Of a stretch of DNA of 11,095 nucleotides, positions 88 to 6,258 are shown piece by piece. Each line of letters opens with the position of its first letter. The stretch's first letter is position 1. The DNA is taken from positions 1 through 11,095 of the forward strand of contig CAWANH010000009.1 of the NCBI GenBank assembly GCA_963783375.1. Reading direction: 5' to 3'. This DNA is from Candidatus Eiseniibacteriota bacterium. GTDB lineage: Bacteria; Eisenbacteria; RBG-16-71-46; JABDJR01. The position numbers and the translations under genes are program-made. The notes under the pieces were generated by a model. The model had not been told where the DNA came from and ran no database searches. It was given only the letters and a program-made list of their open reading frames with translations.

Positions 88-251
88 AAGGTGACGCGGT
101 CTCTTCGTGGGCGCGACGGGGGCTGCGTGCTATTTCCCAAAGGGCGAGCGTATCGCACGCCCTTGACTCCAGGTCCAGCCTCGCGGACCGAAAACCTGGT
201 TGCGTGGGTTCCGTCCCAAGTAATCGGTCAAGTCCCTGCGAGGAGATCCAA

Positions 252-2411
252 GTGAGAAACGCTCTGTTGGGACGGATCCGTGTATCCGTCGGTTTGGCGG
301 CTCTTGCCGGCCTGATCGGGGCGGCCGTCGCGCTCGGCGCCCCCGCCCCCGCCCCCGCCGACGGTAAACTCGATTCCCGACTTCAGGCTCTGCTGGATCA
401 CGCCGGCGTCCCGGCCGCTCCCGGCATGGTGGACCAGGACGGGACCGTGGAGGTGATCGTCCGCGGCGACCTCGACCGCGAGTTCCTGAAGGGGCTGGGC
501 GCCGAGCCTCAGACCGTCCTCTCCGGTCTTGTAACCGCCCGGGTCCCGGTGGACGCCCTTCCGGCCCTCGTCGCCTCGAGGCGGATTTCCCGCATCCAGG
601 CCGGGTCCGGAATGGAGTATCTCCTCGACAAGAACCAGGTCGAGACCGACGTCGAATCGATGTGGGGAGGAGCACCGCCCCAGTACCCCACCGGCGGCTA
701 CACCGGCCAGGGCGTGGTCATCGGCATCGTGGACACCGGGATCGACCGCAATCACCTCGACTTCAAGAACGCCGACGGCACCACCCGCATCCGCTACATG
801 TGGGACCACACCGGGGGCCCGGAGCCTCCGCCCGCCGGCTACACCTACGGCCAGGAGTGGACGGCCTCGGAGATCAACGCCGGCCAGTGCATCGAACAGG
901 ATGCCGTCGGCCATGGGACCCACATCGCCGGGGTGGCGACCGGGAACGGCCGGGCCACCGGGAACGGGGTCCCGCAGTTCACCTACGTGGGCATGGCCCC
1001 CGAGGCGGACATCATCGCGGTCAAGCTGGACTTCCCTTCGGATGTGGAGGTCATCGACGGGGTCTCCTACATCTTCCAGAAGGCCGACCAGCTCGGCGAG
1101 GACGCGGTGGTGCTGCTGGCGGTGGGCAAGCAGTCGGGGCCCCACGACGGCACCGATCCCCTGGATCTGGCCATCGACGCCATGACCGGTCCGGGCCACC
1201 TAGTGGTGGCCGCCGCCGGCAACGAGGGCATGAACAAGATCCATTCCGAGATCGCGATCACTCCCCACCAGACCACGAGCACGACCTTCAACATCCCGAG
1301 CTACGGCTACGCCAGCAACCCGTTCATCGCGGTGGACGGATGGCTGACTCAGGGCCCGACCATATCGGTGACCCTTACCACGCCGTCGGGATACAACCTC
1401 GGTCCCATCGCCGTCGGGCAGGTCAACGTCTGGAGCAACGCCGACGGTTCGGTCCGACTCGAGGTTCCTGCGGGGAGCCCCACCCAGTTGCACCTGTCGG
1501 TCAGCAATCCGGGGGCGGGGACCTGGACGGTAAGGGTCAACGCGGGAAATTCCAGCTCCGGCACCATGGACTTCTGGATCTCGGATTACGACCTGGCCGG
1601 CTCCAAGCCCGAGATGGTCCAGGGGCAGACCTTCGCCAAGTGCGTCGCGTCGCCGGCCACCGCGACCAATGTCGTGGCGGTGGGGGCCTACACCACCAAG
1701 AAATACTGGACCGACCAGTACGGCGGGACGAAGTTCTATCTGAGCGCGGTCATGGACCAGATCGCCGACTTCTCGAGCCGGGGCCCCCGGCGGGACGGCG
1801 TCCTGAAGCCGGAGATCACCGCGTCGGGCTACGGCGTGGCCTCCGCCCGCTCCACCGCCGCCACGATCTACTCGGGTTACATCGTGTTGGACAAGGTGCA
1901 CTGCATGATGTACGGCACCAGCATCGCCGCGGCCTCGGTCGCGGGGGCGGCCGCACTCCTGCTCGAGGAGTTCCCGGGTCTCGATCCGTCCTCGCTGAAG
2001 ACCCTCCTCCAGGGGCGGGCCAACGTGGACCAGTACACCGGCGCGGTCCCCAACCCGACCTGGGGATACGGGAAGCTCTGCTTGACCGCCGCCACCACCG
2101 CGGTGGGGGACACCGGACCGGGGACCGGGCTTCTGACCCGCATGCTGGGCGCGCCCTATCCGAACCCGACCGGGGCCATGACCCGGGTGCCGGTGAACCT
2201 CGACGTCGCGGGGGACGTGACGGTCTCGGTGTACGACGTGACCGGCCGCACGGTGAGGGTCCTCTATTCCGGCTCCATGGACGCGGGCCCGCATGTCCTG
2301 AGCTGGGACGGTACGAACCAGATGTCCCAGGCCGTGCCCTCGGGGAGCTACTACGTGGTCGCGGTGAATCGCACCGCCCGCGAGAGTCGCGCGGTTCTGA
2401 TCCTGCGATGA
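252..2411 (+). CDS. Secreted S8 subtilisin-family serine protease (CspA-like subfamily) with prodomain and C-terminal FlgD-Ig/T9SS type A sorting-like domain, 719 aa
   Basis: GTG start at 252 after AGGAG (241-245); hydrophobic signal peptide. Catalytic Asp in VIGIVDTGID (732-734), His in GHGTHIAG (912-914), oxyanion Asn in AAAGNEG, Ser in GTSIAA (1920-1922). Also HLDFKNADGTTRIRYMWD, FSSRGP..LKPEITASG and PNPTWGYGKL. C-terminus YPNP..VSVYDVTGRTVRVL..WDGTN..VPSGSYY. Confidence 0.95.
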   Translation: MRNALLGRIRVSVGLAALAGLIGAAVALGAPAPAPADGKLDSRLQALLDHAGVPAAPGMVDQDGTVEVIVRGDLDREFLKGLGAEPQTVLSGLVTARVPVDALPALVASRRISRIQAGSGMEYLLDKNQVETDVESMWGGAPPQYPTGGYTGQGVVIGIVDTGIDRNHLDFKNADGTTRIRYMWDHTGGPEPPPAGYTYGQEWTASEINAGQCIEQDAVGHGTHIAGVATGNGRATGNGVPQFTYVGMAPEADIIAVKLDFPSDVEVIDGVSYIFQKADQLGEDAVVLLAVGKQSGPHDGTDPLDLAIDAMTGPGHLVVAAAGNEGMNKIHSEIAITPHQTTSTTFNIPSYGYASNPFIAVDGWLTQGPTISVTLTTPSGYNLGPIAVGQVNVWSNADGSVRLEVPAGSPTQLHLSVSNPGAGTWTVRVNAGNSSSGTMDFWISDYDLAGSKPEMVQGQTFAKCVASPATATNVVAVGAYTTKKYWTDQYGGTKFYLSAVMDQIADFSSRGPRRDGVLKPEITASGYGVASARSTAATIYSGYIVLDKVHCMMYGTSIAAASVAGAAALLLEEFPGLDPSSLKTLLQGRANVDQYTGAVPNPTWGYGKLCLTAATTAVGDTGPGTGLLTRMLGAPYPNPTGAMTRVPVNLDVAGDVTVSVYDVTGRTVRVLYSGSMDAGPHVLSWDGTNQMSQAVPSGSYYVVAVNRTARESRAVLILR

Positions 2412-2710: not shown

Positions 2711-2764
2711 ATGCAGGGGGGCATACAGGTCGTTTCGGGGTCTCGGAAAACGGAGGTGGAGGCC

Positions 2765-3382
2765 ATGTCTCGCAGGCAATTGCCGGTCTTGATCGGAGCG
2801 GTCCTTTTCTCGGGGGTCGTTCTCCTCGGTGAGCAGCGGGCCGAGGCGGTCTCGGACACGGGTCTGGCCCGGGGGCTCGGCCATGAGGTGTCCTACCGCG
2901 TTCTGGAGCAGGGGCGGGACGGCCCGTGGATGAGTTCCATGGTGCGGCTCTTCTCCAACCAGGAGGATTGGGACGCGGCCATGTCCGCACTCGCCGCCCG
3001 GGCGCTTCTCGTCATGGCACCGGTCTCCGCGCCCCGGGACGTCGATTGGAGCCGGCAGACGGTGATCCTGGTCACGATGGGAGAGCTTTCCGGAGGCGAC
3101 TACTCCGTCCAGGTCCGCGACATTCGCCGCTCGGGTTTCGCGTGCGTCCTCGACCTCGAGTGCAGCGGCTCCTCCACCCGCGGCTGGGGTCGGAGCGCCT
3201 GCCGCCCCTACCAGATGATCGTGATCGAGAAGCATGGGGTGAAGGAGGCCCGGGGACGGTTCCGCTGGACCGGTGAAGGGACCGCCACCGCCCGGGCCGC
3301 GGCGCAGGGTTGGGGTCTCACCGGGGACGCCGGCGCCGCGCGCCGTCTGAGCTGGGGCGCGCTCAAGGCCGGGGGATACTGA
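2765..3382 (+). CDS. Secreted PrcB C-terminal-domain-like (protease complex subunit) protein with C-terminal SWGALKAGGY tail, 205 aa
   Basis: ATG 2765 preceded by GGAGG. Signal peptide ending AEA. Core VDWSRQTVILVTMGELSGGDYSVQVRDI...PYQMIVIEK resembles the PrcB_C pattern (vDF.....l.v.mGe.ptgGY.v.v...Py.iv.i.k). The longer ORF from 2498 runs through the promoter region, so 2765 is preferred. Confidence 0.8.
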   Translation: MSRRQLPVLIGAVLFSGVVLLGEQRAEAVSDTGLARGLGHEVSYRVLEQGRDGPWMSSMVRLFSNQEDWDAAMSALAARALLVMAPVSAPRDVDWSRQTVILVTMGELSGGDYSVQVRDIRRSGFACVLDLECSGSSTRGWGRSACRPYQMIVIEKHGVKEARGRFRWTGEGTATARAAAQGWGLTGDAGAARRLSWGALKAGGY

Positions 3383-3444
3383 GCCCGACCCTGGATCGTC
3401 GCCGAAATTGCTTCAGGCCCTTGAACGGGAGCCGAGAACAGGAT

Positions 3445-3472
3445 AGGGCCGCCGGCCGAGCCGGCGGCCTTT
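3445..3472 (+). terminator. Probable intrinsic terminator
   Basis: GGCCGCCGGC-cga-GCCGGCGGCC (3447-3469) followed by TTT. Confidence 0.6.
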
Positions 3473-3476
3473 CCGA

Positions 3477-3505
3477 TTGACTGGGTCGGTAAGTACTCGT
3501 AAATT
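3477..3505 (+). promoter_or_regulatory. Sigma70-type promoter for the YjbH-like pair
   Basis: TTGACT (3477-3482), 17-bp spacer, TAAATT (3500-3505); 35 bp upstream of ATG 3541. Confidence 0.7.
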
Positions 3506-3540
3506 CGAACCTTACCGCTCACGTTCACCGAGGGCCCTGG

Positions 3541-4803
3541 ATGTTCTCCGGACGCCTCCGGGCCGGCTGGGCCGGTCTGGTCATCCTCGCCGTCTTCCTC
3601 CCCGTCCGGGGCGAGGGCGGTCCTTCGTCTGCCGGGTCCGAGCCTCCCGCCGCCCGCGCCCTCGTCGCCCACGGGTTCGAGAACGTCGTGATGGATGCGA
3701 CCCCCCAGGCGGTCACCGTCTGGTACGAGAACCGCGTCTACCGCTACGAGCTGGCCGGGCTGGGCGAGGCGGCGGCCCTGGCCGCGGCGGACCTGGATTC
3801 GGAGCGCACCCTGGTCATGGTGCCCCAGAACCGGGGCGTGGCCATCGTCGCGGTGGCCGCGGCCGCGGGGGACTGGCGGCGCTTCCTGGCCGGCGACGCC
3901 GACGCCTCGTGGTTTCGCGGCCGGATCGAAGTGCGGGCCGACGGAGAGGTTCCCCGCCCCCCCGCCGGAGCCGTCCGCTCCAACCCGCGTTGGTGGCGTA
4001 CGGACCTGAGACTTCGCCCGCTGCTCTCCTTCGAACTCGGGATCGCCGACAACCCCTTTCAGTACTCGCTCTGGCTCGCTCCCGAGGCGGTCATGAGCCC
4101 CGTCACCGGCGTGCTGGTCACCGGGCAAGCCCAGGTCCGGCTGCACGAGGACTTCGACGAGTTCGGCCGTGACGTGGTTCCCGGCCGGAACACCGCGAGC
4201 TGGGGGGGGCGGCTCCCCGCGGGATGGCTCGGCGCGGCCAGCGCCGGCCTCTTTCCATCCAACCGCTACGGCGTGGCCGCCCGGACGGGACGGCTCTTTC
4301 GCGGTGGGGCGCTCGAGATGCAGGTGGGGGGGGATCTCTCCGGGTTCCTGAAGTTCTCGCGGCACGTGGTTCTCTATTCCCGCCTCGAAACCTGGTCCGC
4401 GTTCGTGGCCGGAACCTACCGGACCCGGGGTATCGATCTGGAGACCACGGTGACCGGCGCGCGGTTCATGGAGAAGCGGCTGGGAGGACGGCTCGACGTG
4501 GCCCGGCGGTTCGGGGAGACGCGCGTGGACTTCTTCGGCATCAAGACCCAGGACGATTCGGTGGTGGGGATGGAATTCGAGATCCCGCTCCCGGTCCGGA
4601 AGTGGTCCCGGCCCCGGACGGTGAGGGTCTCCACCGTGCCGGAATTCCCCCTCGCCTACCGGGAATCCGTGCAGGACGTCGGCCGCCAGGTCTCGATGTT
4701 CGACGACCTCGAGCGCCTGCGGATGGGGCTCTATCCCACCTTCATTCTCAACAACCTCGACGATCTGCGATCCGGACTTCCGCGGAAGGAGGGCGGGCGA
4801 TGA
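3541..4803 (+). CDS. Exported YjbH/GfcD-like outer-membrane protein resembling the middle plus C-terminal beta-barrel part, 420 aa
   Basis: Signal peptide; N-terminal GFENV...VWYENRVYRYE segment; amphipathic beta-strands with SAGLF..NRYGV, TGARFMEKRLGGRLDVARRFGE and GMEFEIPL, similar to YjbH C-terminal motifs. Its stop overlaps the next start (ATGA). Confidence 0.7.
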   Translation: MFSGRLRAGWAGLVILAVFLPVRGEGGPSSAGSEPPAARALVAHGFENVVMDATPQAVTVWYENRVYRYELAGLGEAAALAAADLDSERTLVMVPQNRGVAIVAVAAAAGDWRRFLAGDADASWFRGRIEVRADGEVPRPPAGAVRSNPRWWRTDLRLRPLLSFELGIADNPFQYSLWLAPEAVMSPVTGVLVTGQAQVRLHEDFDEFGRDVVPGRNTASWGGRLPAGWLGAASAGLFPSNRYGVAARTGRLFRGGALEMQVGGDLSGFLKFSRHVVLYSRLETWSAFVAGTYRTRGIDLETTVTGARFMEKRLGGRLDVARRFGETRVDFFGIKTQDDSVVGMEFEIPLPVRKWSRPRTVRVSTVPEFPLAYRESVQDVGRQVSMFDDLERLRMGLYPTFILNNLDDLRSGLPRKEGGR

Positions 4804-5519
4804 AACGGCTACCGGTTCTGCTCGCCCTGCTCCTGGTCCCGGCCGCCTCACCGACCGCCCGAGGCGCTGAACCGGTGACCGGCCACGTTTCCCTGGGAGG
4901 AACCACGGGTCTCATCAACACCCCCACCGCCGACGTCCTTCCCGACGCCACGTTCCGGTTCGGGTACTTCCGTATCGACAGGAAATGGGCCTACCAGCTC
5001 CGCGGCGTCTCCGACAACGACGTCTACTTCGTGAGCTTCGGATTCCTCCCCCGGGTGGAGCTCACGGTCCGGGCCACGGTGTTCAAGGACGTCACCCTCC
5101 TTCCGGACACGAACTTTCCCCAGGTGGATCGGATGGGATCGGCGCGGATCCTCCTTCTGCCCGAGGGGAGGGCGCCGGCGGTGGCGGTGGGGCTGGACGA
5201 TCCGCGCGGCACACGGCGATTTCACAGCCTCTATGTGGTTGGAACCAAGACATTTCCAATTCCGATGGGGCAAATCACCCTCCGAGCCTCGGGCGGGTAC
5301 GGGTCCACGGCTCTTTCCGCGTCACGGCGGGTCCTGGACGGAGGCTTCGGTGGGGTCGAGCTGGGAATCGCCGGCCGGGCGACGGGAATGCTTGAATACG
5401 ACACCGAGAAATGGAATACTGGTGTAAGTCTGGTGTTCCTTGGACGCCTGAGCATTCAAGCAGCCTTGCTTCATCTCGACACCCTGTCCGGGGGTGCGGC
5501 CTGGACCCAGTCGTTCTGA
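4800..5519 (+). CDS. YjbH-domain outer-membrane beta-barrel protein resembling the N-terminal barrel of YjbH/GfcD, 239 aa
   Basis: ATG 4800 after GAAGGAGG; signal peptide ending ARG/A. Motifs GTTGLINTPTAD, FGFLPRVELTVR, LLPEGRAPAVAVGLDD, SLYVVGTK, GGFGGVEL and MLEYD; C-terminal WTQSF beta-signal. Confidence 0.85.
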   Translation: MKRLPVLLALLLVPAASPTARGAEPVTGHVSLGGTTGLINTPTADVLPDATFRFGYFRIDRKWAYQLRGVSDNDVYFVSFGFLPRVELTVRATVFKDVTLLPDTNFPQVDRMGSARILLLPEGRAPAVAVGLDDPRGTRRFHSLYVVGTKTFPIPMGQITLRASGGYGSTALSASRRVLDGGFGGVELGIAGRATGMLEYDTEKWNTGVSLVFLGRLSIQAALLHLDTLSGGAAWTQSF

Positions 5520-5654
5520 GGGTTCTTCGGAACGTCGGGGTCGTGTCGACGTCCAGGATGCCCGCCCGTGGATGAGGGTGGTCCAAGTACACCGTGACGT
5601 TTCGGTTCGATCCATTTTCTCGCTAGCGAGTCACAGCCAAGGGGGATCAGGCTC

Positions 5655-6026
5655 ATGCGCTCCAACCAGCCCTATCGCCGTATCTCTTTCTTCGCCATCG
5701 CCGGTATGGCCTTCTTCGCCCTGGCCGCATCGGAACCGCAGTGCGCGCGGGTGGGCGATCAGGTCGTGTCTCCGGACGGTACGTCCCTCAACAGCAACAA
5801 GGGTGGGGTTTCGCAGTGCGTACGCGCCTGCGTCGATGAGGCCCAGCAGCGTCGTGCCGACGAGAAGGACCTCCACCACACCAACCTCAAGAGCTGTGCG
5901 GGCGACTGGCAGTGTCACCAGGAAGAGGAGGCCCGTCACGAATCGGTCATGGAGCAGATCGCCATGGACCAGCGTGACTGCAAGGCCCTTTGCCACAATC
6001 AGGGAGGCGGGCACGGCGGGCAATAG
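5655..6026 (+). CDS. Small exported Cys/His-rich protein (possible lipoprotein) of unknown function, 123 aa
   Basis: AAGGGGGA RBS-like sequence upstream; basic N-region plus hydrophobic h-region; 7 Cys (C30, C55/C59, C81/C87, C109/C113); followed by a strong terminator. Confidence 0.8.
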   Translation: MRSNQPYRRISFFAIAGMAFFALAASEPQCARVGDQVVSPDGTSLNSNKGGVSQCVRACVDEAQQRRADEKDLHHTNLKSCAGDWQCHQEEEARHESVMEQIAMDQRDCKALCHNQGGGHGGQ

Positions 6027-6063
6027 CTCGGTTTCCGTTCCCCCTTTGATGAATGCAATCGTG

Positions 6064-6104
6064 ACCGTGGCGCGCGGTCCCTACGCCGTGCGCCACGGTT
6101 TTTC
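6064..6104 (+). terminator. Rho-independent terminator
   Basis: ACCGTGGCGCGCGG-tccctacg-CCGTGCGCCACGGT (14-bp stem with one G-U pair) followed by TTTT. Confidence 0.85.
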
Positions 6105-6249
6105 TGTGCCGGCGCTCGGAGCGCACGGCGCCCTGACCGCTCCCGGTGGATGTCCGAGCTTCCGGGGTACTTGCGTGCGCTCGAATGTCCGCCGCGCCGG
6201 CGGGTTCAAGACACTTCCAGGCCGAAATTTCCGTCCGGCCGTCGAACTG

Positions 6250-6258
6250 TGATAAAAT
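6250..6258 (+). promoter_or_regulatory. Extended -10 promoter element for the radical SAM gene
   Basis: TGATAAAAT (TGnTAAAAT) 40 bp upstream of ATG 6299; -35 region weak. Confidence 0.5.

Follow-up and report, generated by a model that had tools for sequence, protein, structure and literature searches.

A family of small predicted lipoproteins whose conserved tail is predicted to fill the side gate of a split YjbH/GfcD barrel in Eisenbacteria

Among multi-barrel proteins of the outer membrane, the YjbH/GfcD proteins have been described as the largest family (PMC8346858, in part), and the closest described loci are gfcABCD and yjbEFGH of E. coli. In these loci, GfcD or YjbH is a single chain in the order N-barrel, middle domain, C-barrel, GfcB or YjbF serves as its partner, and this lipoprotein partner has been reported to bind GfcD (PMC8592465). 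The yjb locus additionally encodes a small secreted protein, YjbE. In the consulted sections of PMC11494523, the C-barrel of GfcD is modeled as a 14-strand topology minus the last strand, which leaves strands 1 and 13 separated by a stable aperture, and a lipid-anchored polysaccharide is proposed as cargo from simulation. In these sections, a simulation with lipid A is so far the only explanation for the open side of this 13-stranded barrel (PMC11494523).

Two other described systems resemble parts of the locus presented here. LptM is a small lipoprotein that intercalates into the barrel seam of an outer-membrane protein of another family, where it is reported to act as a translocon subunit promoting gate opening (10.1101/2025.04.10.648201). 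The DUF3869/DUF3870 proteins of Bacteroides (e.g., BVU_4064 and BF1687) are lipoproteins with a lipobox and a His-rich C-terminus, encoded in gene clusters with DUF940 neighbors (PMC4387736), DUF940 being a label that has been used for yjbH (PMC8540638). The available extracts of PMC4387736 take the DUF940 proteins themselves as lipoproteins, guess that the His-rich tail binds metals or wall charges and give no role at a barrel gate. More generally, the arrival and retention of lipoproteins on the diderm surface are, in the literature extracts consulted, known in special cases only. Slam, the BAM beta-signal and the SusCD lids involve a C-terminal recognition signal, strand pairing at a seam, or a lipoprotein that caps a barrel.

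The stretch of DNA analyzed here (the window, 11,095 nucleotides) shares with the E. coli loci the PF06082 barrel family, the domain content and a barrel of 13 strands with a gap between strands 1 and 13; its features are listed in Table 1. Both barrel genes lie above the PF06082 cut-off, and because the first matches positions 277-453 and the second positions 6-173 of this family, YjbH is split in the window and its order is reversed. Unlike in E. coli, the chain is thus split or, when fused, runs middle-C-N, a helical Cys hairpin serves as partner, and polysaccharide genes mostly do not flank the module. The absence of GfcB and GfcC alongside, which the first-pass annotation had tentatively suggested, is borne out: GfcB/YjbF (PF11102) is above cut-off in 0 of 206 genomes of the phylum, including the window's own assembly (G000, 97% complete), in which GfcC (PF06251) was not found either. 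The model of the first barrel gene (pLDDT 95) consists of an alpha/beta domain and 13 long strands as counted from DSSP. A sequence search for solved relatives of either barrel returned none, fold matches of the barrel in the PDB are generic (best OmpG, Z 12.4, rmsd 3.7, 196 aligned), and no homology with Slam, BAM or SusCD was found. The single, circularly permuted chain was observed in 37 ORFs of the genome loci and in 61 of the 80 metagenome loci; it is seen at L017, L020, L021, L044 and most loci of family f10. Stand-alone proteins with middle domain and C-barrel are found mostly in Bacteroidota in the Atlas.

Table 1. Features of the barrel and small-protein module in the window.
Feature	Position	Strand	Basis
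YjbH/GfcD middle domain plus 13-stranded barrel, gene 1	3541..4803	+	PF06082 positions 277-453, 42 bits
Outer half of barrel strand 1, model residues 131-136, predicted tail partner	4021..4038	+	model
Barrel strand 13 plus next residues, model residues 339-346, predicted tail partner	4645..4668	+	model
YjbH/GfcD N-type barrel, gene 2	4800..5519	+	PF06082 positions 6-173, 62 bits
Gene 2 model residues 86-88, touching the small protein in the prediction	5124-5132	+	model
Leader, 135 nt, SD-like run at 5640-5645	5520..5654	+	sequence
Small predicted lipoprotein, 123 aa plus stop	5655..6026	+	translation, Cys spacing, family matches
Signal peptide up to invariant Cys30 (codon 5742-5744), Gln at -1	5655..5744	+	lipidation presumed
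Post-Cys motif V33, D35, G39; residues 30-36 in predicted interface	5742..5771	+	alignment, model
Antiparallel helical hairpin, helices 51-80 and 85-115, variable tip C81-C87	5805..5999	+	AlphaFold2, alignment
C-terminal tail, residues 114-123, His/Tyr-x-Gln/Glu-Gly-x-Gly; predicted 14th barrel strand	5994..6023	+	alignment, model
Intrinsic-terminator-like hairpin closing the module	6063..6108	+	consensus match only

The small gene, its Cys spacing and the terminator behind it, all described in the first-pass annotation, are real as judged by the translation, the codon-position GC and a 16-bp stem. The GC content at the three codon positions of 5655-6026 (0.67/0.45/0.80) resembles that of real neighboring genes and differs from that of the overlapping frames; two alternative frames, 5494-6252 (+) and 5631-6023 (-), were discarded on this ground. 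A purine-rich, SD-like run starts at 5640 upstream of the gene, and the stem of 16 pairs with its T-run lies at 6063-6100 on the 3' side. In the 123-aa protein, cysteines are found at positions 30, 55, 59, 81, 87, 109 and 113, leaving gaps of 24, 3, 21, 5, 21 and 3 residues, and the Glu/His motifs at 69-75 and 88-95 and the Gly/His-rich tail that had been pointed out are present in the translation as well. AlphaFold2 predicts the two helices of the hairpin with pLDDT values of 89-98 per block over residues 51-110, while confidence is low for residues 1-50, i.e., the N-terminal tether is disordered.

A second copy of the module lies on contig C28 of the same assembly. Since C28 matches the entire window (contig C9) at 96.5% over 11.1 kb, this copy is a strain allele, and its reading as a paralogue was rejected. 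The two alleles of the small protein differ at 15 residues, of which 13 lie within 71-100 and 0 in the tail. Along the DNA, the divergence of the alleles (window 2750-6250 versus G000:C28:1786387-1797487) is concentrated in the small gene, the two barrels and a PrcB-like gene, and most genes flanking 2750-6250 are near-identical; the segment has the look of a surface module that is being exchanged or is diversifying. The PrcB_C-like protein (window 2747-3382) is secreted and has 25 non-synonymous differences between the alleles. Further upstream, window 204-2411 encodes a subtilase with a FlgD-Ig C-terminal domain that is also found beside the module in G003, G008 and G009.

The first-pass annotation had assigned the small protein to a YjbH-like module on the basis of its position, and this membership is supported by adjacency in other genomes. 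PF06082 is present in 47 and the small gene in 46 of the 206 phylum genomes (the latter count including G130, E 0.004, probably a false match), with both in 44. In the genome loci, 43 of 48 N-barrel matches have the small gene immediately behind them, at a median spacer of 111 nt (41 pairs). The five exceptions are three barrels at contig edges, G074, and G162, which has no small gene beside the barrel and three copies elsewhere. Of 80 metagenome loci, picked by the barrel alone with a pattern that samples this barrel clade only, 75 extend far enough beyond the barrel to be scored. The small gene comes next in 71 of these 75, as one, two or four copies per locus (one in 55/71). Seen from the small gene, 26 of 84 matches have no barrel match in the 3 kb upstream, some of them because of contig breaks.

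Judged by sequence comparison, the small protein is the founder of an unnamed and new protein family. A profile built from six sequences gives 84 matches in the 46 genomes, with up to 6 per genome. A profile built from 32 sequences retrieved 72 proteins in a word search, the two taxon-labeled ones being from Eisenbacteria, and 336 clusters at 50% identity, of which the best 150 were inspected; these best 150 of 336 are also the source of the long, fused forms of the protein. A search of the ESM Atlas with the small protein returned just two hypothetical Eisenbacteria clusters, under 0.9. Searches of Pfam, NCBIfam and PDB sequences with 128 family members gave no consistent known family, which confirms that the first-pass annotation was right not to recognize one; matches to cyclin D3 (E 0.003) and OATP were treated as chance. 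Fold searches with the hairpin yielded generic hairpins only (best Z 9.3, rmsd 2.1, 75 aligned; 4okv_F with a Foldseek E of 2.6 and a TM of 0.77 on the target), although the lack of a family match in fold searches excludes nothing. In the open PMC and bioRxiv literature, no paper was found on the small-protein family, on a permuted YjbH or on a 14th strand supplied by a partner. New, then, are this family and the YjbH/GfcD variant together with its partner, whereas the barrel family and the His-rich tails of DUF3869 proteins beside DUF940 are known.

The pattern C-x3-C-x21-C-xn-C-x21-C-x3-C is fitted by 280 of 299 distinct family sequences, a count from which P0073 and P0151, two apparent chimeric gene calls, were left out; on this alignment evidence the pattern is not due to chance. 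In an alignment of 142 sequences with less than 90% identity (P0003-P0072 plus the locus proteins), C30 and the four core cysteines C55, C59, C109 and C113 are invariant. C81 and C87 are both present in 129/142 and both absent in 13/142, and an extra pair, C66/C102, has been gained together in 8 members and never singly. Because the residue numbers of C81/C87 and of C66/C102 each sum to 168, like those of the core pairs, this paired gain and loss confirms the antiparallel register with C55-C113, C59-C109 and C81-C87 that had been proposed from the spacing in one sequence. The tip spacing is not constant at 5: between C81 and C87 the tip ranges from 4 to 113 aa, with both arms staying at 21 aa. 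Tips of 15-113 aa occur in 20 sequences and consist of 27% Asp, the long ones being rich in Asp and Gly. Three members (P0121, P0131 and P0222) are branched, with poly-Asp loops and an additional Cys hairpin as an insertion in the tip.

The hairpin charge ranges from -11 to +11 across the family, whereas the tail is conserved (G117 138/140, G119 125/140). Tail length is 9-11 aa in 283 and 10 aa in 198 of the 299 sequences. The first-pass annotation missed this conservation, although the tail is precisely the part predicted to bind the barrel. Behind the invariant C30, conservation extends to V33 (127/141), D35 (129/141) and G39 (112/142). Of the remaining residues that had been highlighted, C81/C87 are dispensable and H75 and H88 are not conserved.

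A further proposal was a cross-helix His/Glu metal site, from which the small protein could be read as a periplasmic or secreted metal-binding hairpin with two ExxxH motifs, co-transcribed with the barrels and not docked to them. The ExxxH pairs are indeed pseudo-symmetric and well conserved individually (E70 137/142, H74 130/142, E91 137/141, H95 121/141). However, all four residues are present in 109/141 only, His can be replaced by Tyr, Phe, Trp or Asn, and the strain allele on C28 itself carries H74Y. The losses pair across the helices (E70 with H95, p=4e-5; E91 with H74, p=0.002, the relatives being kin and not independent) and show no pairing within a helix, a pattern that hydrogen-bond pairs fit better than one metal site. 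Judging from the alignment, a metal site is not required, and since the reading also leaves the conserved tail and the three-chain prediction described below unexplained, it is considered improbable, although some members may bind metal.

Another first-pass suggestion was a likeness to the small Tim chaperones, in which case the protein would be a periplasmic chaperone escorting barrel precursors. In small Tims, the CX3C motifs are separated by a short spacer of about 11-16 aa. The twin CX3C motifs of the present family do sit on an antiparallel hairpin, and in E. coli GfcB and GfcC are reported to stabilize GfcD (PMC8592465), but the spacer here is at least 49 residues, the Tim10/DDP Pfam family matches 0/128 members, the surface charge varies widely, and the predicted contact is with the gate and outer loops of a folded barrel. 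The analogy is therefore superficial, and a chaperone role of this kind is very improbable. The same holds for the shape in general: small Tims, plant alpha-hairpinins and the C-terminal hairpin of aegyptin/AAPP are likewise disulfide-stapled helical hairpins with CX3C pairs, but this is a likeness of shape only, as the small protein has much longer arms, a lipid anchor and a tail. Weak Pfam matches occur in 1-3 of 128 members, and no fold or sequence match is significant.

The residue after C113 is His in 116/141, which gives a CX3CH motif and could indicate a monoheme c-type cytochrome. This reading is hardly credible. The His after the second Cys, invariant in c-type cytochromes, is replaced here by Tyr in 21/141, always with Glu two residues on, C109/C113 are in register with the invariant C59/C55, and profile searches gave no match to a cytochrome family.

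The N-terminus of the small protein consists of a basic n-region, a hydrophobic h-region and the invariant Cys30, which is kept behind the hydrophobic stretch in 140 of 140 aligned relatives. A canonical lipobox with G/A/S at position -1 is absent from the window protein, which has Gln there. Gln is likewise found at -1 in 103/140 relatives and G/A/S in 9/140, while other crude lipoprotein calls in G000 have G/A/S in 112/125 and Gln in 1/125. A regular-expression count of 51 canonical lipoboxes was set aside in favor of the aligned count, because the expression can match a tip Cys and is unreliable. Given this conservation, Cys30 is likely a non-canonical lipidation site, in agreement with the first-pass annotation.

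When the small protein was predicted together with both barrels, as had been recommended, the tail and not the hairpin core gave the best contacts. The three-chain prediction, a single job from which the whole case for binding comes, scores 0.65, compared to 0.00 for the best of 3 controls, with at least 78% contact agreement between runs and a partner pLDDT of at least 74. The score mark is reached by 116/157 solved and by 2/215 mismatched pairs, a calibration that applies only roughly here, since it did not cover three chains with custom alignments. All 25 lowest-error contacts link tail residues 117-122 with barrel residues 131-136 (strand 1) and 339-346 (strand 13), the tail being predicted to run antiparallel to both strands. 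Most of the remaining barrel contacts involve the loops that follow strands 1, 3, 5, 7 and 13, and residues 30-36, a stripe of helix 2 and residues 86-88 of the second barrel are also in predicted contact. Since the published model places the middle domain in the periplasm (PMC11494523, in part), these loops are taken to face the outside of the cell. In the model, the hairpin is accordingly read as sitting on the outer face, a placement that rests on strand numbering.

Several elements bear on the reliability of this pose. As the sequence search gave no solved relative for either barrel, the pose is unlikely to be a complex remembered by the predictor. Where a clade has Tyr-x-Glu in the tail, the most diagnostic columns are 348, 346 and 345 of the first barrel and 88 and 86 of the second, all of which are predicted contacts, and the enrichment of diagnostic columns in the interface has a threshold-dependent p of 0.007-0.07. 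According to a quick tree this clade has a single origin, so that the covariation of tail and barrel counts as one event. Interface columns are not more conserved than the remaining barrel (0.55 versus 0.58, p=0.39), and any flexible tail might be drawn to a barrel edge that is left open.

From these predictions, the reading that is somewhat favored is that of a surface lipoprotein whose Gly-rich tail would enter the side gate and stand in for the absent 14th strand, the barrel pair being a docking platform for such tails. The protein would be exported by Sec and lipidated at Cys30 through its Gln(-1) lipobox, after which the two-helix hairpin would fold, held by two to four disulfides in the register given by covariation and by paired Glu-His contacts. 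It would reach the outer face either through the barrel gate or by a general route for surface lipoproteins. The latter, with docking after general export, is favored because a plugged lumen of 13-14 strands would presumably leave little room for a multi-domain protein or for a hairpin that is folded and locked by disulfides, and because Bacteroidota surface lipoproteins have been reported to use the LPS translocon (10.64898/2026.10.03.756453, in part). There, the tail is predicted to pair antiparallel with strands 1 and 13 and close the gate, with helix 2 covering the outer loops and the N-terminus, which bears the lipid, next to the second barrel. The hairpin would then show its variable, often acidic tip at the cell surface, and the paralogues may be interchangeable passengers. 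The locus hereby offers a proposal that is testable at the level of residues, i.e., that the ten-residue tail of a partner fills the strand gap. Compared to LptM, it is the C-terminal tail that is predicted to complete the barrel, and the paralogues vary.

Alternatively, the barrel could export a lipid-anchored polysaccharide and the small protein be a fixed part of its gate or lid, as LptM is for LptD, and thus a regulator and no passenger. The same predicted pose at the gate would be expected, operon linkage is strict with a single copy at most metagenome loci, lipid A has been modeled as leaving via the GfcD gate (PMC11494523, in part), LptM is reported to intercalate in the LptD gate (10.1101/2025.04.10.648201), and sugar genes are found close to the module in genus g1, family f18 and G074 as well as at two Phocaeicola loci. 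In the window, the terminator is followed by genes for a radical SAM/SPASM protein, an NTP-transferase-like protein, a bacterial sugar transferase and an oxidoreductase; in genus g1, to which the window belongs, a sugar-transferase gene lies three genes downstream. However, a scan of the nearest 75 of 146 crudely called ORFs around 40 modules yielded 3 sugar epimerases as the only sugar-pathway enzymes, next to 10 FKBP, 12 DUF6982 and 7 DUF6627 proteins and 17 ORFs without assignment. In these neighborhoods the polysaccharide link is therefore local, and the general one implied earlier is not supported. Moreover, several diverged paralogues can occur per barrel, some of them unlinked, unrelated Ig-like lipoproteins of 400-780 aa take the same position in Bacteroidota, and the polysaccharide-type locus of G074 carries the barrel without the small gene. 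A fixed gate subunit is, on balance, unlikely compared to the docked surface lipoprotein.

Two observations on neighboring genes can be added. The DUF6982, FKBP-type isomerase and DUF6627 genes adjoining the 40 modules (at L020, L021, L055, L056, L066, L075-L081 and L085) may reflect ancestral synteny of family f10. At L044 (G074:C118:2000-8417), a permuted YjbH lies between an OPX-like polysaccharide-export gene and a Wzc-like gene, as read from sequence, and has no small lipoprotein; it forms a long branch in the barrel tree and is possibly foreign DNA.

Lipoproteins with comparable tails are found next to split barrels in Bacteroidota. The sample consists of three loci from searches of a plasmid collection, and 3/3 have an unrelated Ig-like lipoprotein ending in His...Gly-Gly-Gly. 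In Parabacteroides distasonis, a lipoprotein of 776 aa lies between the two barrel genes; its Cys is followed by an acidic stretch, it contains Ig-like domains, and its tail is of the His/Gly type. None of the 11 annotated features at this locus is a sugar gene. In the two Phocaeicola loci, the barrel pair is followed by Ig-like lipoproteins of about 400 aa with His-Thr-Gly-Gly-Gly-type tails, one of them after an intervening helicase gene, and both loci adjoin polysaccharide-type genes. The DUF3869/DUF3870 proteins belong to this picture, as related Ig-like lipoproteins flank the split barrels, but their beta-sandwich bodies are unrelated to the Cys hairpin. A tail pattern, written after the Bacteroidota tails had been seen, matches 3 of 50 ORFs of the Bacteroidota loci (exactly the three lipoproteins) and 32 of 3397 ORFs of G000; it fits 234 of 299 family members and does not fit 65. 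The Phocaeicola C-barrel genes (L184 6899-7807 and L185 6887-7780) encode about 300 aa, apparently without a middle domain.

More tentatively, YjbH/GfcD barrels in general could be a dedicated export-and-display system for surface lipoproteins, in which unrelated bodies (Cys hairpins of Eisenbacteria, DUF3869-type Ig-like proteins of Bacteroidota and perhaps YjbE/GfcA of Proteobacteria) would use a His-x-Gly-Gly-Gly tail as 14th strand and pass their lipid anchor through the lateral gate. This extension is doubtful, and clearly less probable than docking in the present family. If true, the polysaccharide phenotypes of gfc/yjb would be due to loss of a protein carrier or anchor. It would also account for the His-rich tails of the abundant DUF3869 lipoproteins of gut Bacteroides, and it points to YjbE/GfcA as the E. 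coli counterpart of interest. For the channel family as such, the models suggest that it likely docks surface proteins and handles more than sugars. As to a role as phage receptor, the consulted part of PMC7414163 gives no support for YjbH, and a scan of viral contigs with the Parabacteroides barrel returned none.

Some minor observations concern expression. CANGGA motifs, which are presumably CsrA-type sites, number 41 in 68 leaders of the small gene, compared to 9 +/- 3 in shuffles, the relatives again being kin and not independent; examples are L047, L049, L051, L055, L057, L060, L065, L074, L085 and L086. CsrA was found in 179/206 genomes and not in G000 or its family, and the leader in the window has no CANGGA. 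In one salt-marsh metatranscriptome run, contigs of close relatives cover 5507-6046 and none covers 3331-5180, which is no proof of transcription; contigs of a single run cannot rank expression, and the observation was left out of the evidence.

Lastly, two small proteins beside canonical YjbH genes share a signal peptide and a hydrophobic stretch and are candidate passengers. E. coli YjbE (L183 1407-1649) has an internal Thr-Gly-Gly-Gly stretch ahead of its Thr-rich end, and a 68-aa Phaeobacter protein (L186 7951-8157), which lacks Thr-Gly-Gly-Gly in the same place, has a Thr-rich end as well.
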